DNA of 64,000 bases, from the NCBI GenBank assembly GCA_964650355.1, contig CAZYTL010000001.1:4018-68017 (forward strand). Direction: 5' to 3'. This DNA is from an uncultured Gammaproteobacteria bacterium. Lineage in GTDB: Bacteria > Patescibacteriota > Microgenomatia > CAYXHB01 > CAZYTL01. Below, piece after piece: positions 11,002-48,269 of the stretch. The stretch's first letter is position 1, and each line of letters starts with the position of its first letter. The translations under genes and the position numbers were made by a program. A model generated the notes under the pieces. It saw only the letters and a program-made list of their open reading frames with translations, had not been told where the DNA came from and ran no database searches.

Positions 11002-11234
11002 TACGAAGCACCTCCTTTCTGACCTTTAGTTACCTGATTAATTTTTCCGCTACTAAGGTCAAAGGTGTATTCGCTGTTCACATCGAGTCCGTATTTGAAA
11101 TACTTATTAACAAGCCAACGATCTTTTTGTGATTCCAAAGCCTGAACAACTAACTTGTATTGATTAATCATCTGCATTCGCGCTTGCAGTTCATCGAGAT
11201 CTGATTTGTCTAGTTTTTTAGTTTTTTTGAACAT
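11001..11234 (-). CDS. small phage protein
   Basis: 77-aa ORF whose start and stop overlap the neighbouring genes by about one codon. Confidence 0.35.
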   Translation of the reverse strand: MFKKTKKLDKSDLDELQARMQMINQYKLVVQALESQKDRWLVNKYFKYGLDVNSEYTFDLSSGKINQVTKGQKGGAS

Positions 11235-18811: not shown

Positions 18812-19978
18812 TTAGAGCGAGCCGACACTCATGATTGCGTGACGCTTCTCTTGCTCCATTTGCAGACCACATTCTGTTAGGTATTCATCAACCTGACTGT
18901 CTTCACCAGGGTTTTGACGGTTAGTCAAAAGCTTAGTGTCACGATTGGTCAGGTAGCGGTATGTCAAAGCCTCCATATCTAGACCAACGGCATAGTTACC
19001 GTAAGTCGTTCCAATTAAGAGTGGATGCTTGATGATGTGCAGAGTTCCATGCGGAGAGTCGTAAGTTACGATCCTTAATCCATAGGCTTTAGTAGGGTTA
19101 ACTACCTGGAGTTTCCCTTTAGCCCAACCATTAATCATTGAAACAACTGCTGCGGATGCAAACAGATATTTCTCAGTATTTCCGTGAGCGAAGAGACTCT
19201 CTAGCCATGAATCAAATTCTGATTCTGTGTCAACATTGGCGGTTGCATAGGTTGCGATTCTTCCAAGAATACCGTTAGTAAATCTTTTCGGATGCGTACC
19301 AGAAGTAATGACTCCTTTTTTACCAAACATAAAAGTACGCTCGATATCGACATAGTGTTCGATACCTTTTTTGCGCCTTTGGTAATCAAAGTCATTTTCT
19401 TTAACCCAGCCTTGAGTATTTCTAGCAGTTTCAGTAATACCCACTGGAGTTCGGAAGATCTGACAGTAGTTTGATACTTCGGCAATCGTAGTCGATTTGA
19501 TATCGCGCAAGCCCGCACCTTCTTCATTGGCGTTACCAATGAGCCAAACGTCTCCAACTGCAGAAGCAGCGGATCCAGTTGCCCCACCTAACTCAGCACC
19601 TACTGTTACAGTATTTGCGTCAACTATTGCTGTCACTTGGAAGACCCATTTTTGAGCAGCGACTAAAATTATGTCGCCAACTTGTAAGTATTGGGATTGT
19701 CCAGTGATAGTTAAGTTACCTCCGTCAGGATCAATCGTGCTGGAACCCGTCAATTGACGTTTTCCAAACTCATCTTCAAACCATTTGAATTCTGGATCTG
19801 AAGACTCTCTTTTTTTCAGAGCTTCACCTTCGCCGGTTGCCGGATCTTTTCCTGCGTTCGTCAGAATCGCTAAGAGAGGATATCTGTTGACATCCAATAG
19901 CGATACAACATCCGCCACGTCATATTTGCGTGTTGCACCTACATTACCTGTACCTCTAATTCCTGTTGCTGATGGCAT
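18812..19978 (-). CDS. major capsid protein (likely HK97-fold)
   Basis: 388 aa, immediately downstream of an acidic scaffold-like gene. Size and composition fit a major capsid protein. The call rests on position, without motif support. Confidence 0.5.
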   Translation of the reverse strand: MPSATGIRGTGNVGATRKYDVADVVSLLDVNRYPLLAILTNAGKDPATGEGEALKKRESSDPEFKWFEDEFGKRQLTGSSTIDPDGGNLTITGQSQYLQVGDIILVAAQKWVFQVTAIVDANTVTVGAELGGATGSAASAVGDVWLIGNANEEGAGLRDIKSTTIAEVSNYCQIFRTPVGITETARNTQGWVKENDFDYQRRKKGIEHYVDIERTFMFGKKGVITSGTHPKRFTNGILGRIATYATANVDTESEFDSWLESLFAHGNTEKYLFASAAVVSMINGWAKGKLQVVNPTKAYGLRIVTYDSPHGTLHIIKHPLLIGTTYGNYAVGLDMEALTYRYLTNRDTKLLTNRQNPGEDSQVDEYLTECGLQMEQEKRHAIMSVGSL

Positions 19979-20014
19979 ATTATTTTTTCACCTCCTTTCT
20001 TATTAATTAGGGGA

Positions 20015-20851
20015 TTAGATTCCTAATCCTCCTAAGGGGCTTTTTGACCCGCTTCCGGCGAGAGCTTTCTGGATGCGTTTTGTTTCGGCATCCGAGCTAT
20101 CGGGTTGAGTCGGAGCGCCCGCTCCACTCTCAACTTGAGCTTTTGCCTTTTTCAGACGGCTCTTTTCTTGATCTGATAATTCTTCAGATTCACCCTCATC
20201 GTTGTTCTCGGACTCATCACCTTTGTGCTTACCGAGAAAAGCATCGACCTGCATACAAGCTTCTTTTAGTGAAACTGTAGTGCCTTTGGCGTTAGCAGCA
20301 TCGATAATTGTTTGGACCATTTTTCGATAATCTGGTTCGTGGAGAGGATGATCTTTCTTGGCTTCTTCAATTTCTTTCTGTACTGCAGTACGCACTTTCT
20401 CCTGGACTTCGATTGTCCGCTTCACACCTTCATCAATACGGGCAAGTACCCATTTAGCAAAATCAGAAGGAGTCATTTTTTGCAGTTCTTCTGCACTAGG
20501 GAGATTTAGTTCTTCATTGCCATCCATTCCTTCTTTGTTATCCTTTTCCTGGGTTTCGTCATCTTCTGGCTTTTGGTTTTTCTCAAGAGCCTCATACTCT
20601 TTAATAATTTCTTCACGGCTTTTACCGTGCCAGCGATCCTGGTTTTTGGCATCTTTCTTTTTGTCTTTAGATTTATTTTTGTCTTCCATAGATTCATCTT
20701 TTTTGTCTGATTTAGATTTATCATTTGATTTGTCTACTTCCGGCTTTTCACCACCGTTAGCTCCGTCATCAGAGGGTTCTTCCTCATCAGAAGCATCAAG
20801 AAGGGCATTTAATTCTTCCTGTTCTTTTTGTTTCATTTGTTCTTCGTCCAT
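20015..20851 (-). CDS. scaffolding protein
   Basis: Highly charged low-complexity 278-aa protein (K/E/D runs) directly upstream of the capsid gene. Confidence 0.5.
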   Translation of the reverse strand: MDEEQMKQKEQEELNALLDASDEEEPSDDGANGGEKPEVDKSNDKSKSDKKDESMEDKNKSKDKKKDAKNQDRWHGKSREEIIKEYEALEKNQKPEDDETQEKDNKEGMDGNEELNLPSAEELQKMTPSDFAKWVLARIDEGVKRTIEVQEKVRTAVQKEIEEAKKDHPLHEPDYRKMVQTIIDAANAKGTTVSLKEACMQVDAFLGKHKGDESENNDEGESEELSDQEKSRLKKAKAQVESGAGAPTQPDSSDAETKRIQKALAGSGSKSPLGGLGI

Positions 20852-20855
20852 AGGT

Positions 20856-21110
20856 TTATTCCTTTCTTAAGCTCTGAGCGGTTTCATCGCGCTCTTTAAT
20901 AACGCCGTCAACCATGCTCAAAACTTTTTTGTAGGCCTTGATCAGCTGTTTATGTTCAAGGTCTTCTTCTACTGGGCAATCCAATAGATCTTTTGTTTCG
21001 ATCTCGACTTCTTTATCGATTAAGCCTTTGATTATTTGCCAACCTTCTGTTTGGGTCATTTCCCAGACAGCTCGTCCTCTTTCTAGTTTTTCGTCTAGTT
21101 CGTTAGTCAT
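20856..21110 (-). CDS. small phage protein
   Basis: 84-aa ORF tightly packed upstream of the scaffold gene. Confidence 0.3.
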   Translation of the reverse strand: MTNELDEKLERGRAVWEMTQTEGWQIIKGLIDKEVEIETKDLLDCPVEEDLEHKQLIKAYKKVLSMVDGVIKERDETAQSLRKE

Positions 21111-21112
21111 TT

Positions 21113-21496
21113 TTATAGGTTTGGATTGGCTGGAGGAGATTCTTCCTCTGGCTGCTCCTGGTCTTCTAATCCCATGCTTTTCTTTTGAGTACCCAAACCG
21201 CCAAGTGGTCTTACTTCGTTTTCTCTCATATCCTGTAGAGTAGCGATCAAACTATCGAGTACCTCAAGGAATGTTGATTGCCCTTCGAAGTATGTATTTC
21301 TAGCTACAGTGAACAAGGAATCAACCTTGTCCCAAGTCTGAGCCTCACCTTGTGTGTTGGCTTGGTTTGGCTCCTGAGTTGGTTTATCACCCTTTTCCTC
21401 AGGCATTGGTTTTTTATTTTGGTTAGTTTGTTCGTTTTCCATAATTACTCCTTTAAGTGAAAGGGAATGGTCTTTGAGCATTCCACAGTAAGGCAC
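21113..21496 (-). CDS. acidic phage protein
   Basis: 127-aa ORF rich in E/Q/P. Confidence 0.3.
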   Translation of the reverse strand: MPYCGMLKDHSLSLKGVIMENEQTNQNKKPMPEEKGDKPTQEPNQANTQGEAQTWDKVDSLFTVARNTYFEGQSTFLEVLDSLIATLQDMRENEVRPLGGLGTQKKSMGLEDQEQPEEESPPANPNL

Positions 21497-21851
21497 CTAT
21501 ATAAATTTCTGCAGACGGGGAAGAACCACCATCAATTGTCACAACTGCTCGAAGATATCTTTTCTTGCGATCAATCTGCATTTTGTAACCGGTATCTGCT
21601 TCAACGGTTACTTCTTCGCCACCAACTGCTACTGTCGCTCCACTTGAGAAGTCTGAAACATCAGATTCCTCAATTTTTACTTTTATTGATGTCTGGTCAC
21701 CAAGATCGCCAATAGCAATGTCGATGAGTCCAGAGTCATAAGCTGGTCTATTACTTAGATACGTATCAACACCAGTTGCTTCAGTTGTTTCTGTGATGAC
21801 TCCAATAGGAAGAAGAGTCGCAGTATGAATGTTTTGATTGAGTGTTTTCAT
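21453..21851 (-). CDS. phage head-associated protein (hypothetical)
   Basis: 132-aa ORF that overlaps the next gene by 44 nt. Confidence 0.3.
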   Translation of the reverse strand: MKTLNQNIHTATLLPIGVITETTEATGVDTYLSNRPAYDSGLIDIAIGDLGDQTSIKVKIEESDVSDFSSGATVAVGGEEVTVEADTGYKMQIDRKKRYLRAVVTIDGGSSPSAEIYIGALLWNAQRPFPFT

Positions 21852-22043: not shown

Positions 22044-22412
22044 TTATTTTTTAGAAGACATTTTGCGGCGCATATATAAACGCCTTTCACTGCTTGGGGA
22101 TATCATCTGAACAAAAGGGAGGCTACTTGAGTGATTCAAAAAATGATTAAGGGCGTTTCTGGCTATTTCCACATCTTTCCAATAACTGATACTCACCCAA
22201 TTCTTCCCAGATTTGAGAATTTCACATCTGATAAATCCATCTTGCTTTCTGAAGAAAGCGTATTGAGCCTTTTTAACAGCCTTTAACAAAGCTTCATCAG
22301 TGATACCTTCTATAGGGCTGAATTCGTAAAACTCTATAGCCATGTTTTTATTCATTTCAAGGCTAATTGTAGCATAAATGCTAGTTATCGTCTGTAGAGT
22401 TATTGTCTGCAA
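22044..22412 (-). CDS. hypothetical small protein
   Basis: 122-aa ORF with a vague ABM/Dabb-like alpha+beta look. Not assignable. Confidence 0.3.
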   Translation of the reverse strand: MQTITLQTITSIYATISLEMNKNMAIEFYEFSPIEGITDEALLKAVKKAQYAFFRKQDGFIRCEILKSGKNWVSISYWKDVEIARNALNHFLNHSSSLPFVQMISPSSERRLYMRRKMSSKK

Positions 22413-22439
22413 AAACCTACCCTTTTAGTCAAGGGTAGT

Positions 22440-22655
22440 ATGCCAAAATATAATGTTAGAAAAAAATTCGGTAAAAGACTGAGGTTCCTTAGAAAGGAGG
22501 CTCAATTGTCCCAAGAGGAGTTGGGTTTTAAAGCCAACATTCACAGGACATATATTGGTTCGGTTGAGAGGGGAGAACAAAATGTTTCCCTGGACAATAT
22601 TTACAGACTGGCCAAAGCTCTTAAAGTCGAAATGAAAGAACTATTCGCATTTTAA
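22440..22655 (+). CDS. XRE-family (Cro/C1-type) HTH transcriptional regulator
   Basis: LRFLRKEAQLSQEELGFKANIHRTYIGSVERGEQNVSLDNIYRLAKAL is a canonical XRE helix-turn-helix. It is convergent with the retroelement RT, and its stop lies 4 nt from the RT stop. Confidence 0.75.
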   Translation: MPKYNVRKKFGKRLRFLRKEAQLSQEELGFKANIHRTYIGSVERGEQNVSLDNIYRLAKALKVEMKELFAF

Positions 22656-22658
22656 TTA

Positions 22659-23696
22659 CTAATTAGTCTGAAAATAGTGGGCGTGGTTTTTTATTTCTTG
22701 AGACAGCTTATAACCATTGCAATGAGATAAATGCCCCAAATAAGACTGTAGTGCTTGTTCCAATGCTTCTGGTGGCAAGATTCCATCTTTTATTTTTTGA
22801 GAGGTTTCTGCTAACTTTCTGAAAATTCTTTTCTTTGTTTTTGTTCTAGGTAGAATGTACTTGGGGAAAATTACATAACCCAGAAAATCAACACCAAGAT
22901 AATAATCTACAATATGTATCTTGTTTGGATGTAGAGAAAGCTTTAGTTCTGTGGCAAGAAAACTCTCCAGTTCTAAGAGTATTTTTTCTAAATATTCACG
23001 ATTATCAGACAATACTGCAAAATCATCCGCATATCGTATGTAATGTTTTACCCTCAGCTTGTGCTTCACAAGCTGATCCAGCGGATCCATGTAAATATTG
23101 GCGAAAAGCTGTGACGTTAGATTCCCAATAGGCATACCACTATTTTGATTTGGAGACTTAAAGCTTGTGATTATCTCTGTTAAGAGGTTAACAAAATCAT
23201 CGTCTTTTATCTTTGTTCTCAGAAGTTTAATCAATATCTGGTGGTCAACATTGGCAAAAAACTTCTTGATATCACATTTTAGTACCAGTAGTTTTGAGGT
23301 ATTGTTTTTACTGGCTTTTCTGGACATTTTTATGAAAGCCTGAACAGCCTTATGGGTTCCTTTTCCTTTTCGGCAGGAGTAGGAGTGAGGGTAAAAAGTC
23401 GGATCAAAAAGTTCTTCCAGCACTTTGCTGGTAAGGTGGTGAACCACTCTATCTTTTACACAGGCCTTGTGAATATGACGAACCTTAGGATCTCTAACAT
23501 AAAACTCCTGATAGCTACCATGACGATAGGTTTTTTCCTCCAGCTCTTTGTGCAAACTAAATATATTATCTTCTAAATTTCGCCCGAATAACTGAACGTC
23601 AGCTTTGCTTTTCTTTCCTTTGATAAATTCTTCCCATGCCTGGAATAAATTCTCAAGTGTTATAATCTCAGTGTAATTACTATGCCAGATTCTCAT
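22659..23696 (-). CDS. diversity-generating retroelement (DGR) reverse transcriptase
   Basis: RT motifs are present: motif 2 SYSCRKGKGTHKA, motif 3 LKCDIKKFF, motif 4 MPIGNLTSQLFANIYM, YADD, and thumb FLGY. Motif 4 reads IGxxxSQ as in DGR RTs rather than QG as in group II introns. At 345 aa it lacks X/En domains. Avd and a TR/VR pair lie alongside. Confidence 0.85.
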   Translation of the reverse strand: MRIWHSNYTEIITLENLFQAWEEFIKGKKSKADVQLFGRNLEDNIFSLHKELEEKTYRHGSYQEFYVRDPKVRHIHKACVKDRVVHHLTSKVLEELFDPTFYPHSYSCRKGKGTHKAVQAFIKMSRKASKNNTSKLLVLKCDIKKFFANVDHQILIKLLRTKIKDDDFVNLLTEIITSFKSPNQNSGMPIGNLTSQLFANIYMDPLDQLVKHKLRVKHYIRYADDFAVLSDNREYLEKILLELESFLATELKLSLHPNKIHIVDYYLGVDFLGYVIFPKYILPRTKTKKRIFRKLAETSQKIKDGILPPEALEQALQSYLGHLSHCNGYKLSQEIKNHAHYFQTN

Positions 23697-24068
23697 AAAA
23701 GTTTTGAACCGGGCAGGCTTAATTTAGACATACCGGTTTTTCAGAAAACATACGAGCTCTACAAATTCTTTTACCAACTTGTAGCTCATTTTCCTAAAAA
23801 AGACCGGTATGCTATCGGGCAGAAAATCGAAAATGGGATACTAGGTTTAATTGAGGATATTATCACCGCAAGCCAACTATCGAAGTCTGAAAAAGTGCCT
23901 ACTTTGCAGAACGCTAGTATAAAGCTTGATGTGCTTAAAGTTCTCATACGATGTTGTAAAGATTTAAAGATTATTGATAACAAAAATTACCTCCTACTTG
24001 AGTCAATGCTACAGGAAATAGGTAGGATGCTTGGTGGCTGGATTAAAGCATCTACCTATAACTCCTGA
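23682..24068 (+). CDS. avd: Avd (accessory variability determinant), four-helix-bundle protein
   Basis: 128 aa. FPKKDRYAIGQKIENGILGLIEDIITA and the C-terminal EIGRMLGGWIKA closely resemble the TIGR02436 four-helix-bundle / Bordetella phage Avd pattern (EVGRILGSWIAR). It is encoded divergently from the RT, and the two 5' ends overlap by 15 nt. Confidence 0.75.
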   Translation: MPDSHKSFEPGRLNLDIPVFQKTYELYKFFYQLVAHFPKKDRYAIGQKIENGILGLIEDIITASQLSKSEKVPTLQNASIKLDVLKVLIRCCKDLKIIDNKNYLLLESMLQEIGRMLGGWIKASTYNS

Positions 24069-24108
24069 TTTGATTTGGGGCAGTTTGTTTGTGCAGTCAG
24101 AGATAAGA

Positions 24109-24240
24109 CTACAGTGACACGGAAACCAACGTTGTCATTCGAGTTCGCCGGATGATTCCAATTGGCGTTGGCGGCACCACCATTGTCGGAGTTGCCAACA
24201 ATGACACGGTTAGACTCGCCGTCATCACGTTTCGCATTGC
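24109..24240 (-). repeat. DGR template repeat (TR)
   Basis: About 130-bp near-copy of the target gene's 3' end. On the coding (minus) strand it is adenine-rich (encodes NRVIVGNSDNGGAANANWNHPANSNDNVGFRVTVVL). The ORF 24056..24310 spanning it is regarded as non-coding template. Confidence 0.8.
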
Positions 24241-24611
24241 TTACTTTCTTTCCTGAAAGGGTATTAAACCTTTCATTATTACCACTGGCTTCTTTAACGT
24301 ACAGTTTCAAGCTTTTACTTCTTTACCAAGATTGTCCTTAATTTCTTAAGAACTCTCTCCTGTATTTTATTTGGCTCAGGTTACCCCAAGGCCTTCAAGA
24401 GTAAGCAAGTAGTTTTATCTCTCCTTAGTCAGCACTCTCCTTATAGCCGTAACCACAAGGACTCTGGCCTAGCTCTATAGAAGAGCGACTTTGTGAAATA
24501 CAGGCTTACCCGTATTTTCATTAACAAAATCTAACTTGAAGTATAAAGAAGGAGAGCGTAAAAAATCAAGGGTAAATGCTATTTATAGACTTCATATTGA
24601 AGATTGGTAAT

Positions 24612-24642
24612 TTTTCAAAAAAAGCGACCCGCTTCGCGGGTC
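24612..24642 (-). terminator. GC-rich hairpin / rho-independent terminator just 3' of the VR
   Basis: gacccgc-ttc-gcgggtc forms a 7-bp GC stem. On the minus strand it is followed by gcttttttttgaaaa. It lies about 50 nt beyond the target gene stop. Confidence 0.6.
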
Positions 24643-24688
24643 AAGGGACCAAGAATCAAGAAACCAAAAGAACCAATAATTTAAGAGA

Positions 24689-26632
24689 TCAAGTTCCAAG
24701 AACTACAGTGACACGGAAACCAACGTCGTCAGACGAGTACGCCGGAGGAGCCCAAAAGGCGTAGGCGGCACCACCACAGTCGGAGTCGCCAACAACGACA
24801 CGGCGAGACCCGCCGTCACCACGCGCTTCAGTATTAGTCCACTCGTATGTGTTGGTAGAACCCCAACCCTCACGATTTGCCAATAAATTCCATTCAACAG
24901 CTTCAAGCATCCTTACATCGGCTGATGATGGTAAACCAATTTCACTAAGAAGTTCACGTTTATTGTTTTCAATAGCTCTGTGTGCATCGTCCCAGGAAAC
25001 ATTAAAACGGTCATCAATCCCTAGTCCTTCACTTACTGGCGTTCTATCATAGTGTTCACCATAAGAAGGTTTTTGCATGGTTTCTACAGCCACCCATGTA
25101 CCTGGTAATTGAGGAAGCTCCATTCTGCCATCTTTTGCTAATCCCCAGAACCATTCTTCAAGGTTTCTTCCAACTCTATGATCTTCTCTTTCCTCGCTGG
25201 ACAAAGTTTCATATCTACGCCAGTTCGGATAACGACGTTGGATTTCATCCAAGAACCTCTCCTGGCCGTTTCTCTGGAGTTCATCCAAAATGCCAATATC
25301 AAGTTTAGGGATATATCTTAACTCAAATCCGAGACGTTCAAGATTTCTTTGAACCTCAGGAGTAACTTCTGCAGGTAGTGGTGGAACTTCTACATTTGTA
25401 CCTAAAGCTTCATTCCAAGCATCTTGCTCCTGAGATACTTCAACCGTTTCCCTTTGTCTCTCGGGAACAGCAGTCGAGCTTCGATCAAAACCACGTCTAG
25501 GAGAAACATTTTGAGGTGCAACATATTCTACGTGGCGAATCAATTCTTCAAGCTTTTGTTTGTCAACATCAGAATCAAGTTTATTTGAATAGTAATAACG
25601 GAGAGCAGCTTGAAAAGTTTCGTTGATATCACCACTATAAAACCTGAGAATAAAATCTCTAACCCTTCTGGGTTCCATACGGTCGTCATACGTAAAGGGT
25701 TGAGGTTGATCGGCAGCTATTCTTCTACCCTTAACCAGCTCTTTTGCAGCCTTATGAAATTCTTTGTATTTTCCTAAAATTGAATCTATCCCTGGAATTT
25801 CCTGTAGCTGCTCTGGTTGAAGAGCGTAGTCTTGAGAAACCAAGAAATCTTCCGGCGAGACACCTTCTTCCTGAGGAGCTAAGGTGAATAGAGCATCAGT
25901 TGAATAAGAAAATGTATCATCAGGTAACTCAGAAGGAGCTTTGAGATATACCCAACGCCTTAACTGTGCAGGATCTAGTGGTTCACGACCAAAATATCCT
26001 TTCCCGGGGGGATTCATAAGAGCAACTACTTTGGTAGTTTCTTTACTAACAGGAATCGACTCTGATGCATCTTCCGATAAAACAACTGACTCTCCACGAT
26101 TAATTGCATCTAAGACTTCGTGAAGTCTGATTACAATATTTGGAGCAGCTGAATTAAATTCATCCAAAATAATTACCTTGACCTTACCGTCTTCTTGCCT
26201 CAAACCAGAAGTAACTTTTCCGTCAGCGAATATATACTCAGGATCATCTGCACTTCTTTTGTCCGGATTGGGGATATATCTGCCCATTAGATCCTCAACA
26301 TCGGTTGCTCCGTTTAAATTAGCGTAATGTACTTCCCAACCCAAATCTGCCGCCATTTTTCTAACAGTAGTAGTTTTTCCTATGCTGGTTCCACCCTCGA
26401 TTAATATCGGATCTCCCTGTAGCCAGCTGACGGCTATATCCTTTTGCAGACCAAGTGAAAATTTATCATTAATATAGTCAGCGTATTGTTCACGGCTAGG
26501 TACAAAATGCCCCCCATCATTTTCAGCTTTGGGTAAGCGGACACCTAAGTAGGCGACAGTGTCATGACTCTCCTCAACAGGATATTCTGGTGGTGGCGTA
26601 AATTGGTGTCTTTCCATAGATTCGTCTGGCAT
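24689..26632 (-). CDS. DGR target protein: MoxR-like AAA+ ATPase with C-terminal C-type-lectin/FGE-like variable domain
   Basis: Walker A ILIEGGTSIGKTTTV, Walker B KVIILDEFN, sensor-1 VVALMNP, and RR Arg finger. The C-terminal ...SRRVVVGDSDCGGAAYAFWAPPAYSSDDVGFRVTVVLGT has the CLec-type VR signature ending GFRV. Confidence 0.75.
   Translation of the reverse strand: MPDESMERHQFTPPPEYPVEESHDTVAYLGVRLPKAENDGGHFVPSREQYADYINDKFSLGLQKDIAVSWLQGDPILIEGGTSIGKTTTVRKMAADLGWEVHYANLNGATDVEDLMGRYIPNPDKRSADDPEYIFADGKVTSGLRQEDGKVKVIILDEFNSAAPNIVIRLHEVLDAINRGESVVLSEDASESIPVSKETTKVVALMNPPGKGYFGREPLDPAQLRRWVYLKAPSELPDDTFSYSTDALFTLAPQEEGVSPEDFLVSQDYALQPEQLQEIPGIDSILGKYKEFHKAAKELVKGRRIAADQPQPFTYDDRMEPRRVRDFILRFYSGDINETFQAALRYYYSNKLDSDVDKQKLEELIRHVEYVAPQNVSPRRGFDRSSTAVPERQRETVEVSQEQDAWNEALGTNVEVPPLPAEVTPEVQRNLERLGFELRYIPKLDIGILDELQRNGQERFLDEIQRRYPNWRRYETLSSEEREDHRVGRNLEEWFWGLAKDGRMELPQLPGTWVAVETMQKPSYGEHYDRTPVSEGLGIDDRFNVSWDDAHRAIENNKRELLSEIGLPSSADVRMLEAVEWNLLANREGWGSTNTYEWTNTEARGDGGSRRVVVGDSDCGGAAYAFWAPPAYSSDDVGFRVTVVLGT
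24703..24834 (-). repeat. DGR variable repeat (VR) at 3' end of target gene
   Basis: Aligns base-for-base with the TR. Every mismatch (about two dozen) falls where the TR coding strand has A (plus-strand T), for example TR AAC codons becoming S/R/D/C/Y/F/P codons. An identical 3' block (cgttggtttccgtgtcactgtag) acts as an IMH-like end. Confidence 0.8.
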
Positions 26633-26640
26633 AGTTTTTC

Positions 26641-27048
26641 TTAGCTTTGATATGTAATACCTGCTATTTCAAGAATCCTAAAACCTGATTCTTGGGTTTT
26701 CTTAAGAGCAGCTTTAGTTAATACATAAATAATTGTAACGCCTTTATAAATTGGTGTTACCATCTGAGATTTCAGATTGAACTTATCATAAATCTCAACC
26801 TGGCCTGTGGGGTACTGTACCGCAAAATCATATAGGTCTTTAGGCAAAACATCTTTAATCACCACAAAAGACTTAGAAGCTTTTTCAACTTGTTTAAATA
26901 AATCTGATGTATCAACTGCTTGTCTGAACTCGCCTTCACTCAATTTTTTTATAAAATCCTCAAGCTCATTTTCGTCCTTGGCGATCATGAGTGAAACCTC
27001 TTTTTGTGAATTGGCGAATTTTAGAAAATCTTTTATCGTATTTGTCAT
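26641..27048 (-). CDS. hypothetical protein between the AAA+ and vWA genes
   Basis: 135-aa ORF packed tightly between the two genes. Confidence 0.35.
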   Translation of the reverse strand: MTNTIKDFLKFANSQKEVSLMIAKDENELEDFIKKLSEGEFRQAVDTSDLFKQVEKASKSFVVIKDVLPKDLYDFAVQYPTGQVEIYDKFNLKSQMVTPIYKGVTIIYVLTKAALKKTQESGFRILEIAGITYQS

Positions 27049-27065
27049 ATATTATTCATAGTATA

Positions 27066-29162
27066 CTAAAAAGTGTCGTAATTGGCGACCACTTCTCTGA
27101 TAACGTCTGCTAATTTATCGGACATTTCCCTCACTCCTATATTTGCCACACTATTTGGATAATATCTGCCTACGTGATCTGTGCCGGGACCAATGCCTAA
27201 CCCTATCAATTTCTGATCTGTATTTTGCATTATTTGATCAACTGTTTTACCTAGCTCGAATTCCGGTCCGGAATGAGCGCTTGATTCTTCAGGAAGACCA
27301 TCAGAAAGAACAAACAGGAATTTTTCTGCTGATTTTTGACGGGCCAAACGTTCCGATGCTTGTTGAACAGCCCAACCGTCATCATTGTAAGCTGCAGCAG
27401 AGCTGTCTACCTCCTGGAGCATACCTCCCATATGTTCCCTAACTTCACGACCCATATCGTGTCCGAAAGGTTGATATTCATATAACCTATCATTAAAACC
27501 CAAAACCTCCGTGTTGATTGAAAGCCTATTAAGAACTTCTGCTAAGACAATTGCAGCTCTAAAAGTTTCCCTTATTTTTTGACCTCTCATTGAACCGGAT
27601 AAATCAACCAACAGACTAATTGCATAATCTTTCTCCTGAGGAATTTCCCGTTTCTGCCAGGCTCTACTTTCAACAGGTGAAATACCTAATGCTTTTTCCT
27701 GCATTCTTCGTTTAATGTCGATACGTTTTCCTGACTTAAAACCTGTCTGCCACTTCTGAGCTCGTCTGGCTACAAAAATTTCTCTCAAATCCGCTTCTAG
27801 AGTGTCAATAAGCGGGAGAACATCCCTTCGGTATTCTTCATAGATATTTTCATCTCCGCGCAAAGCTTTTTCAATTAAATCCTTAAATCGCTTCTGATCC
27901 GGAGTTTGCTCTGGTTTCGTTTTCCCTTCCTGTTCATCGTCTGAGGCTGAATCCCTATCTCGTTTTGTTCCTTCTACGGCTTCTCCACGCTGAGCCTGCT
28001 TTTCCGGATTGTCTGAAAGTTTGCCTTCGAATTCTTCATTAACTTCTCGCTCAAACCCCTGTAATGCTTGCTGTGCTTTCTCTGCCAGCTCACGTTTGAC
28101 ATCTTCAGGCAAAGAGTCAATATAGTCTTTTATTTTTTGTTTTAATCCCTCAGACAAAGAGTCAAGATCAATAGCTCTGGGTTGCCCGCTACCTTCCTGC
28201 TCAGCTTGGTTGCCTTGCTGAGCATTTTCAATAGCTTCTTCAAGCTCTTTTTGTTCTTCTTCTGTTAGTGAATCTGCCAACTCCTGAGGGAGTCCTTGTT
28301 GTCCTTCTCCTTCGCCACCTCCCTGCATATCCTCCATAAATTCCTGCATTTCCTGATCTTGCATATCCTGTTCAACCAACTTCTGAAATTCCGGCCATAC
28401 CTCATCCCGATTAATTTCATAGCTGACATTAGCGTACCTTCTGATTAAGTCTTCACTTTCATCTGCTTCGTGTTTTGAAGGGTATCGTAGCCAGGAATCT
28501 CTGGCACTTTCTAGCGTTTGACTAACCACCGCTTTTACTTCTTCCGGCAAATCTTCACTCAGTGCCCCAAATTCTTTTCCCTGAGTTTCTCCATACCACT
28601 GGCGTATATACTCAAAACCTGCTTGCATGAATCGAGGAGTATACCCCAGCTGGTCGTGAGCTTTTTCTTTAGCCTTGCCTTCAAAATCCAGATCTTCCTG
28701 ATATGCAATATCCATCTGATCACGAAAGCGGGGGTAAGCTTCTGCCACAAAATTATTTGTTCGAGGATCTTCAATGGCATTCATCATAAAAGAGAACCCT
28801 GGTTGTCTCCAGGTTTCTGTGGGAATGTCCTCAGTTCGAGATACACGCCTGTGACCGCCCTCATGAGAAATAACAAAACGTAAGTAGTCCATATCCTTCT
28901 GAAGCAGGTCTTGGGGGTCGATGCGGATTTTATTTTGTCCAAAATCCCAATGCCAGCCGGCACCTGGTTGGTTAAGCTCGACAGGTATCTGAAAATCTTT
29001 ACCTATAAAATAGGCCAATGAAGAAAGAATTTGTTGCCTATGCTGAATTTCCTGCTGTTGGTCAGGAGAAAAATGTCCGAGTATCTCGGTTTGATTATCT
29101 TTACGTAGAGCGTGTAGGGTTGTCTGTGATTCTCGTTCCATAAAATCAGTTTTTTGTTCCAT
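27066..29162 (-). CDS. vWA-domain protein with N-terminal HExxH zincin-like motif (partner of the MoxR-like ATPase)
   Basis: C-terminal MIDAS DLSGSM (DxSxS) plus FVLSDG and a downstream Thr/Asp pattern of vWA domains. N-terminal FVISHEGGHRR is an HExxH motif. Long acidic coiled-coil linker. Confidence 0.7.
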   Translation of the reverse strand: MEQKTDFMERESQTTLHALRKDNQTEILGHFSPDQQQEIQHRQQILSSLAYFIGKDFQIPVELNQPGAGWHWDFGQNKIRIDPQDLLQKDMDYLRFVISHEGGHRRVSRTEDIPTETWRQPGFSFMMNAIEDPRTNNFVAEAYPRFRDQMDIAYQEDLDFEGKAKEKAHDQLGYTPRFMQAGFEYIRQWYGETQGKEFGALSEDLPEEVKAVVSQTLESARDSWLRYPSKHEADESEDLIRRYANVSYEINRDEVWPEFQKLVEQDMQDQEMQEFMEDMQGGGEGEGQQGLPQELADSLTEEEQKELEEAIENAQQGNQAEQEGSGQPRAIDLDSLSEGLKQKIKDYIDSLPEDVKRELAEKAQQALQGFEREVNEEFEGKLSDNPEKQAQRGEAVEGTKRDRDSASDDEQEGKTKPEQTPDQKRFKDLIEKALRGDENIYEEYRRDVLPLIDTLEADLREIFVARRAQKWQTGFKSGKRIDIKRRMQEKALGISPVESRAWQKREIPQEKDYAISLLVDLSGSMRGQKIRETFRAAIVLAEVLNRLSINTEVLGFNDRLYEYQPFGHDMGREVREHMGGMLQEVDSSAAAYNDDGWAVQQASERLARQKSAEKFLFVLSDGLPEESSAHSGPEFELGKTVDQIMQNTDQKLIGLGIGPGTDHVGRYYPNSVANIGVREMSDKLADVIREVVANYDTF

Positions 29163-29200: not shown

Positions 29201-30763
29201 TTACAGAAACTGAGAGGTATCAGCATACATATTCATAATTGGTTTTTTGCTTGCCTTGTGCTTTTTCTCCTCCTCAACATTTACAAAATTAATCAAATAA
29301 ATAATTGCTGCCTTGGTGAGGCACATAAGATTAATTGTCTCTTGGAAGAGAGTATCAGAATCAATGTTGTGCTTATCTGTTTCATCATCAACGCTTGTTA
29401 TTAATGAATCGAAGACTATTAGTCGTCTGTGGGTAAGTGCATTTCTGATTTGTTTTATCTTTTGATATCTATTGAGTTTGAAATCCCGGTATATGTCATA
29501 TAAAGCATAAAGGCTTAAATTATCAGAATTGAGTATTTCTTTCCTGATAACTTCTTTATGTTCCCAGACTGAGGCTGTGGAAAAGTAGATATTATTTTCC
29601 TTAAGCCTCAGATCGTAATAGTCGTTAATAAATACAGCAATTTTGTCCAATATATTGAAAGCATCCTTAAATGCCGATTTTAATAGACCTACATAAAGAT
29701 TGAATTGTGAGTAGTCCAGGGCGTATACATAGCTGGTTCTCTTGCTAATACTGTCGAAAGTCTTTTGTTTGTATTGAGATTGAACCAGATTGAGCCTGGC
29801 TACTGCGTAATCTTCTTTAATTTGATTGAGTTGTTTGGCGAAATTATAGAATGTGTCGTTGTCGTCAATTTTTGTGATCAGCCTGATAAATACTGGGTCC
29901 TCAATTGCGGCTTCACAAAAATCATCATGGATATGGAAATTGAGAAATAGCTTTTCCCTGCTGCAGAAATCTAAGTAATACTGTTCGAATTTAGTCAACC
30001 CTTTTGTTTTATATTTGGGATGCTTGATACTTTTCTTAAGTAATGATTTATCTTGAAAAAGAGATTCGATGTAATCAAGTTCGCGCTCGAAAGCTTTTTT
30101 AGCATCAGTACCTCCAACTTGTACCAGCTTCGGATCGTCTAAAACTGATTTGATATCTTGGTAAGCGGTTACATATATTGAAGCCCGATATTTGTCAGAG
30201 ATATCAGCAAATGCCCGAAGTGCTTTGGCTCTGTTTGCTACTGCCATTGGGAAGTTTTTGTTCAAGTCGAGCGCTTCGTTGTAGGCAGTTATGGCTTCAA
30301 TCCCTCGACCTAATGTGTCTAAACAGTTGCCTAGATTAACTAACACTTGTGTCTTTAGGTTTGGGTCATCAAATTCATTATTTGTCGCTTGAATTAAATG
30401 TTGTTTGGCTTGTAATAGATTTGTACTTTGCGGTATTGTGCGATCTACAGCGCCACCCATTCTTTCTGTAAGCTGATATAAACTTGTATACCCATTTGCC
30501 AGACAATAGTGAAGGTAAGCCTTCGTCTTGCCATTCTTTGTTTGTATTAGTGTGGATTCACCAAAATCAATACCTTCTCTTATGATATTTTCGTCCCTGA
30601 GATCGTTTCCTATATCAACTAAAAAGCCAGGTTTATAAAATATCAGTCTCTTGTCATCAGGGTTTTCCTTTTCGAATTCAGTTAATTTTTCAAGTGCCTT
30701 TTTTGCTTCTCCTGAATTGATAAGTAGTGAGATTGTTTGGAATGAGAGAGTCTTTTTATCCAT
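29201..30763 (-). CDS. TPR-repeat protein with C-terminal HEPN-like (Rx4H) domain, Abi/defence-like
   Basis: The N-terminal half reads as TPR-like helical repeats (AITAYNEALDLNKNFPMAVANRAKAL...). The C-terminal region contains IRNALTHRR (R-x4-H HEPN catalytic motif). Confidence 0.5.
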   Translation of the reverse strand: MDKKTLSFQTISLLINSGEAKKALEKLTEFEKENPDDKRLIFYKPGFLVDIGNDLRDENIIREGIDFGESTLIQTKNGKTKAYLHYCLANGYTSLYQLTERMGGAVDRTIPQSTNLLQAKQHLIQATNNEFDDPNLKTQVLVNLGNCLDTLGRGIEAITAYNEALDLNKNFPMAVANRAKALRAFADISDKYRASIYVTAYQDIKSVLDDPKLVQVGGTDAKKAFERELDYIESLFQDKSLLKKSIKHPKYKTKGLTKFEQYYLDFCSREKLFLNFHIHDDFCEAAIEDPVFIRLITKIDDNDTFYNFAKQLNQIKEDYAVARLNLVQSQYKQKTFDSISKRTSYVYALDYSQFNLYVGLLKSAFKDAFNILDKIAVFINDYYDLRLKENNIYFSTASVWEHKEVIRKEILNSDNLSLYALYDIYRDFKLNRYQKIKQIRNALTHRRLIVFDSLITSVDDETDKHNIDSDTLFQETINLMCLTKAAIIYLINFVNVEEEKKHKASKKPIMNMYADTSQFL

Positions 30764-30764
30764 G

Positions 30765-31016
30765 TTATTTATTCAGGCTTTTATAGCAATCATTTGTAAA
30801 CTTAGTTTCATCATCGATTAGCTTCTTCCAAGAGTCAGAGCCAAAATCGGTTATCCCCAACTCTTTTTTACCAATTTCAAGATAAGCCCCACCAAGTTCT
30901 GCACAGTTGGTGGGTTTGGAGCCAATGCCAATTTTGTAGCCAACAAACAGACAAATAACTGAAAATACAAAGGCCAGTAATATTATCACTGGGAGTTTTA
31001 CTTTTCTTACCTTCAT
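30765..31016 (-). CDS. small single-pass membrane protein coupled to the TPR-HEPN gene
   Basis: N-terminal transmembrane helix (LPVIILLAFVFSVICLFVGY). The stop lies 1 nt from the start of the downstream gene. Confidence 0.4.
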   Translation of the reverse strand: MKVRKVKLPVIILLAFVFSVICLFVGYKIGIGSKPTNCAELGGAYLEIGKKELGITDFGSDSWKKLIDDETKFTNDCYKSLNK

Positions 31017-31059: not shown

Positions 31060-32967
31060 CTAGTTAGTAAGCATCTTTCCTAGTCCAGGAATTTTTCCGA
31101 TTAGTTGTCGAATTTTGTTCTTATTCGCTACTAGTGGCTCATTGGTCGTTTCTTTCTGTAAAGTGCCGTTAGAAGGCGACACAGGGGCTACAACTTCTGC
31201 CTCTGTTGATGTTTCATCTGATTTTTCCTGTTTTTCCGTTATTTCCGGACCAAGTAGAATATCGACATACTGGTCAAGGTCTAACTCTTCCAAAATCATC
31301 TTTTGCAAAGCTCGCTTACGAATCAGCCACTGCTTTATACCAATTGGGTCACTTGGGTCCGGCTTGTCCTGGGCAATGAATTTGTCATATAGCAACAATA
31401 TCTGGTTGAGTCTTGCTTGTTTGTCAGGCGGAATTACTGGCTCAACTTCGACAATTGCATCTACGCTAACTTTTTTATCTTCAGATTTAAATTCCTTAAA
31501 ATCAACATTATTTCCTACTATCCTGTAGAGCTTATCCTCGCTGAGGAACTCTCTATTTAACTGGATGAGGATATTAGCCACAGTAGTTAAAGCGTTTGAA
31601 ATATTTTGAGCATTTATGCTTAACCGTAGGTTGCTTTGACCAAGGAGCATTGCAACTTTCCCTAGTGGTTCGCTGGACGACTTTGGTAGCCCCTGCAAAT
31701 ATTCACCTAGCGCCAGAGTCCTCGATATCTCATCTCGCAGCATCTTATCTTCGTTGAGCCCCATCAAACTTATTTCTGGAGGTCGCTCAATAACCACATC
31801 ATCCATTTTTCTGAGCTCCCAAACAGCTCCAGGAGAGAAAATAATGTCATTCTTGGTGATGCCGGTATCTTTACGGATCTTAACTACTGGATCTAGCATC
31901 AGAATTACATCATCCATGCGTTGGTTACGCAGGTCAGCAATCTCCATAATGGTACTTTCAACAGGCTCAACATGACCGGTTGCCCAGAATTCCCAGAGAA
32001 GAGACATATCTGGCAAATCAACAAAGATGTGTCCATTGTTGATATCCAAGTATGGGTTCTCGTCATCCCTAATTACCACTTCACCATTGGCAATAACTAC
32101 CAGTTCATCTTCCTCATAGTCCCAACATTCCCATAACTCCAGTTGCTTCTCTTGATCACTTTTTACAGGCAGGACTTTTTGTTCACCGGTGTCGGCTTTC
32201 TTAAGATCGCCATCAATCTGAGACATTTTTTTGGTGTTTATTTCATATCGTTCTTTTTTCCAATCCTCAACATTCTTGGGGTTACAAAATTCAAGATTCT
32301 TGTATATATGGTTTTCTCCACGGTTTTCTTCTTCTTTTGTAATTTTTTCCTTAGTTTTAACTATCCTGTGGATTAGCCAAGGGCACCCATCCTGCAGATC
32401 CTCTGTTTCTGGTGCCGGCAGGAAGTCCCACAAGTCGCATAGAATCATGGTTGGATCGTCATATAAGACTTTGAATGTTTCATCCGATTTTTTCCTGCTT
32501 TGAACTTTCCAGGCTAATTTAACAATTCCGTTTCCATACAATACTGATGACTCAATCCAGTGGGGAAGCTTTTTGGCTAGTTCAATAATGTCAAAGTCAT
32601 AGTTGACCAAGTCATCCCAAGAAGATAATGCTCTTGACTCTACATCTCTCTTGTCTCTGGGAATGACTCGTGTTTTGCGTTTAGCAGTCGCTAGTCTAGA
32701 TACAACCGTCTTGACGATTTCAAATGCTATTGGGGGCATGAGGCGAGTGTTGTAGGCGTAGTTTTGTTTGTGCTGATAAGCCCGGTAGAGCTTATACATC
32801 CTCAGCCACTTAGCTTGGTATGGATCACGAAACTCTTTTGCCCGCTTAAATCGAGCTTTCCATTTTTTGAGGAGTTTTTCATCACGTTCCGTAGGTTCGT
32901 ATCTTTTTCCTGGTGAAATTTTTGTTTCTTTGACTTTAGGGTTTGGCATAGTAATTTTGGCCAACAA
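31060..32967 (-). CDS. portal (head-tail connector) protein
   Basis: 635 aa, upstream of the head module. The N-terminal RAKEFRDPYQAKWLRMYKLYRAYQ region is interpreted as portal-like, and the C-terminus is acidic. The assignment rests on size and position and is not backed by a motif. Confidence 0.45.
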   Translation of the reverse strand: MLAKITMPNPKVKETKISPGKRYEPTERDEKLLKKWKARFKRAKEFRDPYQAKWLRMYKLYRAYQHKQNYAYNTRLMPPIAFEIVKTVVSRLATAKRKTRVIPRDKRDVESRALSSWDDLVNYDFDIIELAKKLPHWIESSVLYGNGIVKLAWKVQSRKKSDETFKVLYDDPTMILCDLWDFLPAPETEDLQDGCPWLIHRIVKTKEKITKEEENRGENHIYKNLEFCNPKNVEDWKKERYEINTKKMSQIDGDLKKADTGEQKVLPVKSDQEKQLELWECWDYEEDELVVIANGEVVIRDDENPYLDINNGHIFVDLPDMSLLWEFWATGHVEPVESTIMEIADLRNQRMDDVILMLDPVVKIRKDTGITKNDIIFSPGAVWELRKMDDVVIERPPEISLMGLNEDKMLRDEISRTLALGEYLQGLPKSSSEPLGKVAMLLGQSNLRLSINAQNISNALTTVANILIQLNREFLSEDKLYRIVGNNVDFKEFKSEDKKVSVDAIVEVEPVIPPDKQARLNQILLLYDKFIAQDKPDPSDPIGIKQWLIRKRALQKMILEELDLDQYVDILLGPEITEKQEKSDETSTEAEVVAPVSPSNGTLQKETTNEPLVANKNKIRQLIGKIPGLGKMLTN

Positions 32968-33173: not shown

Positions 33174-33386
33174 TTGTTAAGTAAATTTATCAACAGTAAT
33201 ACTATGGAAGAACTTCTAACGATAGGCGAAGCCGCTCAGATTTTGAAGGTTCATCCCAACACTTTACGTTTGTGGGATAAAAACGGCATCTTGAAAGCTG
33301 TGAGAATTGGTGTGAAAAAAACTCGCAGATACAGAAAAGAGGATATCGAGAAGTTTATTAAAGAAGGTAAAAATAATAAGGAATAA
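33174..33386 (+). CDS. excisionase/MerR-like HTH DNA-binding protein
   Basis: LTIGEAAQILKVHPNTLRLWDKNGILKAVRIG is the MerR/excisionase-family HTH. The likely start is the ATG at 33204 (MEELLTIGEA...). It is a paralogue of ORF 48019..48213. Confidence 0.6.
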   Translation: MLSKFINSNTMEELLTIGEAAQILKVHPNTLRLWDKNGILKAVRIGVKKTRRYRKEDIEKFIKEGKNNKE

Positions 33387-33391
33387 AAACT

Positions 33392-35614: not shown

Positions 35615-35620
35615 ATACAT

Positions 35621-39602: not shown

Positions 39603-39611
39603 TCCTAAAAC

Positions 39612-42985: not shown

Positions 42986-43021
42986 CTGTAATAAGTCATG
43001 ATTGAACTTAAAATAAAATAA

Positions 43022-44113: not shown

Positions 44114-44146
44114 ATATCATGAAAATTAAACACGAGACGATATTGG

Positions 44147-44170
44147 GGATTTACTTATGCCTTCAGGGTT
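44147..44170 (+). repeat. right copy of about 24-bp imperfect direct repeat
   Basis: ggatttacttatgccttcagggtt, with 21 of 24 positions identical to 33036..33060. Confidence 0.55.
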
Positions 44171-44185
44171 CTAGTTGAGTTAAAT

Positions 44186-46564: not shown

Positions 46565-46570
46565 ATATTG

Positions 46571-47284: not shown

Positions 47285-47287
47285 AAA

Positions 47288-48213: not shown

Positions 48214-48269
48214 AACTCAACTTAATTATACAAAAATATAGCCTAAGTTGATATACTTGTAATACAACC

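Follow-up and report, generated by a model that had tools for sequence, protein, structure and literature searches.

A Patescibacteria-type DGR with a midasin-like AAA+ ATPase as its target, located in the head module of a phage

What does a DGR diversify when it lies among the head genes of a phage, and is its target part of the virion? The question is raised by the window, the whole 64,000-nucleotide stretch of DNA analyzed here, in which a complete DGR (RT, Avd, TR, and VR) was confirmed at 22659-29162 on the minus strand. The cassette comprises the following features.

22659-23696, minus strand: DGR reverse transcriptase (RT), 345 aa (RVT_1, 4.7e-29; PADLOC RT, 3.6e-53)
23682-24068, plus strand: Avd accessory protein, 128 aa (NF033474, 3.4e-28; bAvd, 8.3e-24)
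24108-24229, minus strand: TR, 122 nt, with 27 adenines and nine AAY codons
24625-24643, minus strand: GC-rich hairpin GACCCGC-GAAG-GCGGGTC, then a T-run, ~45 nt beyond the target stop codon
24689-26632, minus strand: DGR target ATPase, 647 aa, ending ...GFRVTVVLGT (ORF and AAA_5 match)
24702-24823, minus strand: VR, coding for the last ~40 residues of the target
26159-26164, minus strand: Walker B of the target
26372-26395, minus strand: Walker A of the target
26641-27048, minus strand: 135-aa protein (p135), between the VWA and ATPase genes
27066-29162, minus strand: VWA partner protein, 698 aa (CobT_C/VWA, E 3.3e-17)

TR and VR were 85% identical, and all 18 mismatches in the 122-nt core fell at TR adenines, of which the core holds 27; no second VR was found within the window. 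Among 58 homologues, VR codons with a TR-adenine template at position 1 or 2 displayed a mean entropy of 2.68 bits, compared to 0.67 bits for the remaining VR codons. Within the 90%-identity cluster holding the window's target, the backbone was 96.7% identical and the last 48 residues just 69%. As read from these sequences, RT and Avd copy TR and write adenine-mutagenized copies into the last ~40 codons of the target, and this diversification appears to be ongoing, judging from the C-terminal divergence within the cluster and the entropy at adenine-templated codons. Avd is encoded on the strand opposite to RT, as in the other CPR (Patescibacteria) loci, ~40 of which have this orientation. The hairpin lies where a DGR inverted repeat would follow the IMH and is also intrinsic-terminator-like; the example of the Bordetella phage DGR (PMC5758913, Figure 1 legend) suggests that it may have a role in target recognition.

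An earlier note on this DNA had described the diversified domain as the CLec/FGE-like tail of a cytoplasmic MoxR/AAA_5-type ATPase with all of its motifs present, and this description was borne out. The Pfam AAA_5 match spans aa 76-226 (nt 25955-26407; E 4.2e-13) and exceeds the curated cut-off. Across 75 homologues, G81, T82, G85, K86, and T87 of Walker A and D157 and E158 of Walker B were invariant, as were N207 at the sensor-1 position and R225/R226 at the Arg-finger position. In sequence, the module was closest to the AAA modules of midasin (9e-32, compared to 2e-3 for CobS and 3e-3 for NorQ). By these residues and matches, the target is shown to be an ATPase of MoxR/midasin type with intact catalytic motifs. 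Its helical lid reaches ~aa 374 and is followed by a disordered linker (aa 375-396, nt 25445-25510) and a C-terminal module of ~250 residues (aa 397-647, nt 24692-25444). A confident structural model supports a CLec/FGE fold at the end of this module, the C-type-lectin/FGE fold being that of all well-studied DGR targets. Of the profile matches put forward earlier, those to AAA_5 and CobT_C/VWA were obtained, whereas Pfam gave no match to FGE-sulfatase, nor to DUF1566, even allowing E up to 10. The C-terminal module is modular, because free-standing copies of ~330 aa, each with its own VR, were found in many loci. Maximum Kyte-Doolittle hydropathy (19-residue) was 0.87-1.20 for the target and partner proteins and their N-termini are hydrophilic; both the target and its partners look soluble and cytoplasmic.

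The neighboring gene encodes, as previously proposed, a MIDAS VWA protein with an N-terminal HExxH motif. The N-terminal helical domain carries HEGGH (aa 100-104, nt 28851-28865) and NAIEDPR (E131), with the HEGGH...E arrangement conserved. An acidic coiled-coil linker (roughly aa 260-440) leads to a C-terminal midasin-type MIDAS/VWA domain with DLSGS at aa 520-524 (nt 27591-27605), whose nearest structures are the MIDAS domains of MDN1/Rea1 (midasin) and NorD. Both DLSGS and HEGGH are kept throughout the partner family. Results of fold searches with this protein were dominated by its VWA domain. Neither Pfam nor a profile search against PDB sequences linked the HExxH domain to a peptidase family; the case for peptidase activity therefore rests on the conserved motif and a strand-then-helix topology, by which the domain may cleave a ligand.

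The 135-aa reading frame between these genes proved to be a real, conserved gene. p135 gave no match in Pfam, PHROG, NCBIfam, or PADLOC, and homologues of 133-171 aa occupy the equivalent position in 62 of the 66 loci surveyed (numbered L001 onward); in L024, p135 is duplicated along with the ATPase. The order VWA-p135-AAA is retained in essentially all 62 species-level CPR loci, the flanks being otherwise unrelated. Together, these data show that the ATPase, the MIDAS/VWA protein, and p135 form a fixed three-gene unit. A survey of this unit with and without the DGR, suggested earlier, found RT or Avd in 45/66 loci; in L015-L017, L053, and L055, the triad stands without adjacent RT/Avd, and the C-termini are apparently fixed.

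The surroundings of the cassette in the window are those of a phage.

18812-21851, minus strand: head module downstream of the block, including small head proteins (phrog_1328, 8.1e-36; phrog_5707)
18812-19978, minus strand: major capsid protein (phrog_1328; L004 homologue labeled SU10_MCP)
20015-20851, minus strand: scaffold-like acidic protein, 278 aa (labeled from position and acidic/lysine-rich composition only)
22044-22655: ABM-like gene (122 aa, minus strand) and HTH_3 gene (71 aa, plus strand), between RT and the head genes
29201-30763, minus strand: TPR and HEPN_LA2681 protein, 520 aa (HEPN_LA2681, 1.8e-31; RNALTH at aa 440)
30765-31016, minus strand: protein of 83 aa, a single transmembrane helix at its N-terminus; gene flanked by those for the portal and HEPN proteins (Kyte-Doolittle hydropathy, 19-residue, 2.92)
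31060-32967, minus strand: phage portal protein, bordering the inserted block on its upstream side (SU10_portal, 3.6e-10; phrog_332, phrog_1216)

Portal and head genes thus flank the unit as the earlier note had it, the name "scaffold" being a matter of position and composition. The 83-aa gene is conserved among phage relatives, in which the ABM-like gene also comes after RT. The TPR-HEPN protein is a candidate RNase effector by its motif and profile match; its gene accompanies the triad solely in the closest relatives (L001-L008, L068-L070) and is missing from more distant loci, so HEPN cannot be the general effector of the family. The phage further encodes type I RM, SIR2-HerA, and AbiU2, and triad neighbors in other loci include Fic, AbiEii, restriction-modification genes, helicase-PLD, and large serine recombinases. 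PADLOC returned no known defense system.

Carriage by a phage is the exception. The triad was found in 62 species-level CPR genomes, with host names such as Gottesman-, Shapiro-, Levyi-, and Saccharibacteria, compared to 3 close relatives in 2.9 million IMG/VR contigs. Phage carriage is confined to one SU10-like lineage, in which the block keeps its position in every member found (L004, L012, L068-L070), and one more distant phage (L021), where it is placed differently with respect to the portal. The majority of copies are in CPR chromosomes without recognizable phage genes nearby, as in L001, flanked by EF-P, RecQ, and MgsA. The description as prophage cargo holds for the present phage lineage, but the natural home of the unit is the CPR chromosome or small islands.

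With moderate confidence, we read the locus as a standard CPR-type DGR that an SU10-like CPR phage has captured along with the TPR-HEPN gene, at a site between portal and head genes, and that works as a programmable conflict machine. By analogy with midasin, CbbQO, NorQD, and CobST, the ATPase ring would cooperate with the VWA protein as substrate adaptor, and contacts among AAA, VWA, and p135 are likewise proposed by analogy. Every ring subunit would bear one copy of the same reprogrammable lectin-fold site, so that a ligand inside the cell, probably a protein from an invader or competitor, could be captured multivalently. ATP hydrolysis would then remodel or extract the captured ligand, which the partner's conserved HExxH...E domain may cut, and in the present lineage only, the adjacent HEPN RNase may be a downstream effector. 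The DGR would let the population keep altering what the machine recognizes. We infer a programmable binder-remodeler in genetic conflict, to which the defense-gene neighbors speak by guilt by association; in the phage, it is most likely a conflict module (exclusion or counter-defense) and not a virion part.

A role in the particle, either as a head-assembly chaperone pair or as packaged or ejected proteins with a host-adapting variable lectin domain, appears quite improbable. The triad does sit inside the head module on the strand of the structural genes, at a position conserved across its lineage, and the distant phage carries it too; MoxR-vWA pairs have been cited for archaeal virus tail assembly (PMC7159879), a proposed precedent, and receptor-binding proteins are what classical phage DGRs diversify. 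Yet such a role is odd for a soluble ATPase, the cassette is bounded by terminator-like hairpins, and the scarcity of viral copies, the location of most copies in CPR chromosomes, and the altered position in L021 all argue against it. In another account, possible but unlikely, the triad serves the CPR cell in regulation or in interaction with its host (episymbiosis), and the phage merely carries it as a passenger or lysogenic-conversion set; its broad and vertical spread over CPR phyla speaks for this. Triads that persist without adjacent RT/Avd and with apparently fixed C-termini fit a housekeeping-like remodeler, and attachment, defense, or regulation has been suggested in the literature, and earlier authors proposed that CPR DGR targets act in attachment or in interaction with the host (PMC10221324, PMC10907252). 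Proteins without signal peptide or membrane segment are, however, unlikely to touch the surface of a host cell directly, and flanks that vary from genome to genome, with frequent recombinase, toxin, and RM genes, give the triad the look of a mobile island rather than that of a core gene.

The earlier note had matched the architecture to NTP-dependent conflict systems. Membership in the VMAP-type MoxR-vWA ternary systems (Kaur et al. 2020), where a sensor triggers MoxR-driven release of effector domains from the vWA protein, would account for a MoxR-clade ATPase, a vWA protein, a third gene, and a DGR-diversified FGS/CLec domain, and in cyanobacteria and gammaproteobacteria such systems frequently come with a DGR (PMC7159879, PMC10907252). 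That match did not hold, and we regard membership as very improbable: published systems carry the hypervariable FGS/CLec domain as a fusion to the vWA component, on the C-terminal side of other effector domains, and have the VMAP protein as third partner (PMC7159879), whereas here the CLec domain is on the ATPase and the third partner is the unrelated p135. Neither p135 nor the HEPN protein has a Pfam VMAP match, PADLOC gave none, the ATPase and VWA are nearer midasin, CobS/T, and NorQ/D than classical MoxR, and CPR DGR RTs mostly form a clade apart from conflict-system DGRs (PMC10907252). Database labels would instead make the pair an auxiliary metabolic CobS/CobT cobaltochelatase of the phage (phrog_249 "porphyrin biosynthesis," 1.2e-10; phrog_17276 "CobT," 1.5e-17; JGI "cobalamin biosynthesis protein CobT"; Pfam CobT_C), which is hardly credible. 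NCBIfam equivalogs scored far under their cut-offs (CobS, 15.3 versus 558.55 bits; CobT, 32.4 versus 759.05 bits), no Pfam CobN match was found in the scanned window ORFs (most ORFs of at least 100 aa), and the ATPase is much nearer midasin than CobS; on these grounds the identity was rejected. A chelatase also has no place for a hypervariable lectin tail or HExxH domain.

Set among known systems, the programmable conflict machine proposed here has a target type that is already known in CPR bacteria and is not new. The earlier note had presented it as unusual, but a passage in PMC10907252 citing Paul et al. 2017 names the AAA ATPase-CLec fusion as the architecture most often seen among DGR targets of CPR bacteria, and "Midasin" AAA matches are among the CPR UVR4 targets of Wu et al. 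2018 (PMC5758913). These DGRs, including the B3 cassette of PMC5758913, share the organism lineage and the midasin-like AAA with C-terminal VR; the present copy differs by its place in the head module of a phage and by its TPR-HEPN gene. According to Wu et al., next to nothing was known of links between CPR DGRs and phages; they also left the fold of UVR4 targets open, whereas for the target here the model described above supports CLec/FGE. Our analysis adds the VWA-p135-AAA order across CPR loci, the frequency of RT/Avd, and phage carriage with TPR-HEPN.

Like midasin (Rea1/Mdn1), its closest relative in sequence, the target has an AAA_5 module and is encoded beside a MIDAS protein, and like CobT, the partner has an acidic linker ahead of its VWA domain, which together imply an ATP-driven remodeler with a MIDAS adaptor. 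Unlike midasin, NorQ-NorD, CbbQ-CbbO, CobS-CobT, and RavA-ViaA, each chain here has a single ATPase module and a hypervariable lectin-fold tail; further departures from midasin and MoxR-type AAA+/VWA pairs are the additional HExxH domain of the VWA protein, the obligatory third protein of 135 aa, and the lack of a nearby gene for any known client (ribosome, Rubisco, NOR, CobN). With VMAP/iSTAND systems (Kaur et al. 2020, PMC7159879; Dore et al. 2024, PMC10907252), the locus shares its three kinds of component, a DGR-diversified lectin-fold domain inside the cell, and candidate peptidase or nuclease effectors nearby, but not the VMAP, Trypco, or EAD adaptor domains, and it belongs to ultra-small unicellular bacteria and their phage, whereas those systems are found in multicellular bacteria. 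Treponema denticola TvpA and Bordetella phage Mtd, to which the target has no detectable sequence similarity, likewise have a CLec/FGE fold with VR at the extreme C-terminus, and their DGRs share the AAY-rich TR and the GC hairpin after VR; in contrast to TvpA, a lipoprotein of the cell surface, and Mtd, which forms the tip of a tail fiber, the target here is a soluble ATPase.

Pfam, PHROG and NCBIfam searches supplied the family assignments in the window. From the portal gene to the capsid gene, the ORFs and repeats follow one another as listed here.

Genes and repeats between portal and capsid, in coordinates of the window
31060-32967, minus strand: portal, SU10 type
30765-31016, minus strand: 83-aa membrane protein with a single strong transmembrane helix near its N-terminus; its neighbors are the portal gene and the HEPN gene
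29201-30763, minus strand: TPR-HEPN protein (HEPN_LA2681) with an RNALTH motif
27066-29162, minus strand: 698-aa VWA protein (CobT_C/VWA)
26641-27048, minus strand: 135-aa protein (p135)
24689-26632, minus strand: 647-aa ATPase (AAA_5)
24108-24229, minus strand: template repeat (TR), non-coding
23682-24068, plus strand: accessory protein Avd (NF033474)
22659-23696, minus strand: reverse transcriptase, RT (RVT_1)
22440-22655, plus strand: small HTH gene
22044-22412, minus strand: ABM-like gene
From 21453-21851 to 18812-19978 (capsid gene), minus strand: head genes, with a major head protein match

An earlier note had described, at 24689-29162, an AAA+ ATPase as the target of a diversity-generating retroelement (DGR) and a VWA protein as the ATPase's neighbor. 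The ORF positions, domain matches, the mismatch pattern between TR and variable repeat (VR) and a hairpin beyond the target gene together confirm that observation in place. The RT next to the repeats matches RVT_1 at 4.7e-29; about 40 related loci have an RT homologue after the target gene, and the RTs of related loci from Patescibacteria (CPR, ultra-small bacteria) are 35-87% identical to that of the window. Avd matches NF033474 at 3.4e-28, exceeding the 80-bit cut-off. TR and VR (24702-24823) share 85% identity, and within the 122-nt core, where TR holds 27 adenines and nine AAY codons, all 18 mismatches fall at TR adenines. The VR forms the 3' end of the target ORF and lies in a C-type-lectin-fold (CLec) module, and 3' of the target's stop codon, the usual place of a DGR inverted repeat, stands a GC hairpin whose loop is GAAG, together with a T-run. 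No further TR copy was present in the window, and no second VR was found in the tail genes of the phage.

Diversification was read from comparison of homologues. Across 58 homologues, mean entropy was 2.68 bits at codons with a TR adenine in position 1 or 2 versus 0.67 bits elsewhere, and it is precisely in the VR that the C-termini of the ATPase homologues vary. Among the 13 full-length members of the window protein's 90%-identity cluster, the backbone is 96.7% identical, compared with 69% for the last 48 residues. Together, these comparisons indicate that the DGR, which is of the CPR type, is active.

The AAA_5 core of the target (aa 76-226) has midasin AAA modules as its nearest sequences (9e-32), with CobS and NorQ distant, and its fold is nearest to members of the MoxR clade. 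Degenerate ATPase motifs, which the earlier note had named as grounds for abandoning its claim, were looked for in an alignment of 75 homologues; Walker A, Walker B, N207 (sensor-1 position) and R225/R226 (Arg-finger position) are invariant there. An AlphaFold model from the same alignment (mean pLDDT 85) comprises the ATPase with its lid and a confidently modelled C-terminal module (aa 397-647), joined by a linker (aa 375-396) that is disordered. The lectin fold of this module was recognized by fold search alone and missed by sequence profiles, with no FGE-sulfatase or DUF1566 match in four C-terminal modules searched against Pfam at E values up to 10. No hydrophobic segment or signal-like N-terminus was found in the ATPase, the VWA protein or p135. 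These data demonstrate that a soluble ATPase of the MoxR/midasin type bears a lectin-fold VR, the combination of a midasin-like N-terminal AAA domain and a C-terminal VR that marks the AAA-ATPase-CLec targets of CPR, here in a member of the Patescibacteria.

In the 698-aa partner, the VWA domain forms the C-terminus, preceded by an acidic helical linker (28% D/E); the CLec module is instead on the ATPase. An HEGGH motif occupies aa 100-104, with NAIEDPR 27 residues further on, and H100, E101, H104, R106, N128, E131, D132 and R134 are invariant among 40 diverse sequences. In the structural model, a small sheet (strands in 61-81) is followed by the motif-bearing helix (91-107). Assignment of this N-terminal domain to the zincin metallopeptidases is plausible and is put no higher because every sequence method, Pfam and PDB profile searches included, returned no peptidase family for it. 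Fold searches were dominated by the VWA domain, and one JGI record labels a homologue "SprT family Zn-dependent metalloprotease." For p135, no family was found in Pfam, PHROG, NCBIfam or PADLOC.

More than 400 homologues of the ATPase were recovered, nearly all of those with named sources coming from Patescibacteria metagenome-assembled genomes (MAGs), where the contig is in some cases 0.5-1.4 Mb long; a second class of homologues carries a different VR-bearing C-terminus. When each species was represented by a single genome, scanning yielded 62 loci across many CPR phyla, and essentially all of them keep the order VWA-p135-AAA (the triad) between unrelated flanks. A MIDAS/VWA partner and a small protein thus accompany the ATPase in essentially all CPR loci surveyed. 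An RT and/or Avd homologue was detected in 45 of 66 loci, directly downstream of the target in all but three, and Avd, where a locus has it, almost always runs on the opposite strand. Eight loci (L006, L015, L016, L017, L028, L034, L053 and L055), each covered for 8-10 kb to either side, carry the triad with neither RT nor Avd, and therefore the triad, not the DGR, is the constant. Such triads may descend from diversified ones that lost their DGR, or a DGR elsewhere may serve them in trans. The C-terminus looks fixed in L015-L017, and P0100, a protein resembling that of L017, occurs on 132 contigs.

Many CPR loci also encode a second, free-standing copy of the C-terminal module, about 330 aa long and with its own VR-like end (L029-L031, L036-L038, L042, L047, L049, L050, L054, L056, L057, L063 and L066). 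One DGR probably serves two targets in these loci, one with the ATPase and one without. The C-terminal-module family as a whole forms 277 clusters at 50% identity. Several cassette loci carry MAG labels from elsewhere (Gammaproteobacteria, Pseudomonadales, Anaerolineaceae, Bdellovibrionales, Geobacteraceae or Micrarchaeota); mis-binning of CPR or phage contigs, rather than a true presence beyond CPR, probably accounts for them.

The triad lies beside phage structural genes only in the lineage of the window's phage (L004, L005, L007, L008, L012 and the IMG/VR viral contigs L068-L070, with the same gene order throughout) and in a distant phage, L021, where it is upstream of a restriction system and portal. 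A close relative, L001, is a chromosomal cassette ordered HEPN-VWA-p136-AAA-Avd-RT that adjoins a serine recombinase amid housekeeping genes. The triad was captured by a phage lineage along with the HEPN gene. Among cultured phages (tblastn, 50,697 GenBank phage records), the sole match was to Haloarcula virus HHTV-2, whose AAA core is 30% identical, and no tRNA or integration-site clues were found in the window. Co-inheritance of the TPR-HEPN_LA2681 protein with the triad was seen in the closest relatives only, among them a chromosomal island that adjoins a large serine recombinase (in L001, the HEPN gene is at 6175-7431). The HEPN and VWA genes of L004 are separated by an inserted gene for a 1418-aa P-loop/HEAT protein. 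The 83-aa membrane protein is kept among phage relatives. The two-ORF appearance of the L012 target (10001-12105) is an artefact, since a run of N at an assembly gap splits the gene.

Elsewhere in the window, a block of defence genes (33174-49922) lies between the terminase (55208-56764) and the portal, and two junctions of the phage's packaging/head module are therefore occupied by cargo. The block contains a MerR-type HTH gene, a type I restriction-modification set (HsdM with a specificity-like tail, 33392-35614; HsdR, 35621-38416), SIR2 (38406-39602) with HerA (39612-41471), a DUF2779 protein, a trypsin-like protease and an AbiU2 HEPN protein (47288-48022). The tail region encodes a protein of 1800 aa (4522-9924) in which an LPD38 domain ("large polyvalent protein") was recognized; an M23-like peptidase gene (3448-4518) adjoins it, and an Amidase_2 protein (14721-16385) is several genes off on the other side. 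The phage also encodes a sigma-70-family factor (53907-54407), an N6/N4 DNA methylase with a ParB-N domain (57338-58597) and a C5 cytosine methylase (59429-60526).

Several known systems pair a MoxR-type ATPase with a VWA protein. A cobaltochelatase is rejected on the NCBIfam equivalogs, on which the ATPase reached 15.3 bits against a cut-off of 558.55 for CobS and the VWA protein 32.4 against 759.05 for CobT; CobN had no Pfam match among the window ORFs scanned, which were most of those of 100 aa or more. The VMAP ternary system is likewise rejected, as its third component, VMAP, is absent: p135 and the HEPN protein gave no VMAP-family Pfam match and nothing in PADLOC. Its VWA component would also carry a C-terminal effector or FGS domain, and here the VWA domain is itself terminal. 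Among the known defence systems in PADLOC, the ATPase gave a weak match to mad8 (4.6e-4), with nothing for the VWA protein, p135 or the HEPN protein.

By analogy with midasin, NorQD, CbbQO and CobST, the ATPase would form a ring and use the VWA protein as an adaptor, with DGR-programmable tips choosing the client; the HExxH domain might cleave that client, and signaling to the HEPN protein is possible. Such a unit would act in conflict between mobile elements and cells. The identity part of this reading we hold to be nearly certain. The conflict function is offered tentatively, at somewhat under an even chance, and identity and conflict function together, the best explanation overall, stand about evenly between right and wrong. 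The rivals weighed against it were membership of the VMAP systems, a role in the virion, a regulator of the cell that the phage carries as a passenger, and a cobaltochelatase. A fuller reading, which we consider rather unlikely, is that CPR DGRs had the triad as their ancestral client: a hexameric ATPase with six identical retroelement-rewritten lectin-fold tips, a zincin-bearing MIDAS adaptor and a small coupling protein would form a reprogrammable midasin-like machine for extraction or proteolysis. It would serve as an anticipatory intracellular immune receptor, stolen by at least two phage lineages, and the phages, one with a HEPN RNase, would turn it on rival elements or host defences.

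Synteny of the triad makes of a hypervariable protein with no assigned role a concrete three-protein machine open to expression and testing. The phage-borne copies indicate that mobile elements also benefit from the unit, and as compact and complete operons they suit heterologous work. Should the conflict reading be true, DGR-diversified intracellular sensing reaches beyond multicellular bacteria.

In the MoxR-vWA-VMAP systems of Kaur et al. (PMC7159879), it is the vWA protein that bears the DGR-diversified FGS domain as a fusion, and the anatomy of the window unit differs from theirs. The target architecture is shared with the AAA-ATPase-CLec DGR targets of CPR (Paul 2017, as cited by later authors; Wu 2018, target group UVR4). 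The earlier note had singled out a cytoplasmic AAA+ ATPase as the target of a DGR; the features are real and most motifs had been read correctly, but such a target is an already described CPR standard. Wu et al. (PMC5758913) reported that UVR4 targets of CPR match the AAA domain of "Midasin", did not settle the fold and stated that essentially no information existed on phage association of CPR DGRs, and Dore et al. (PMC10907252) suggested that the ATPase of AAA-CLec targets may transduce signals. The present analysis contributes the fixed three-gene unit, the midasin-type MIDAS partner with its conserved HExxH, the fold-level support for the lectin module and the documented carriage by phage.
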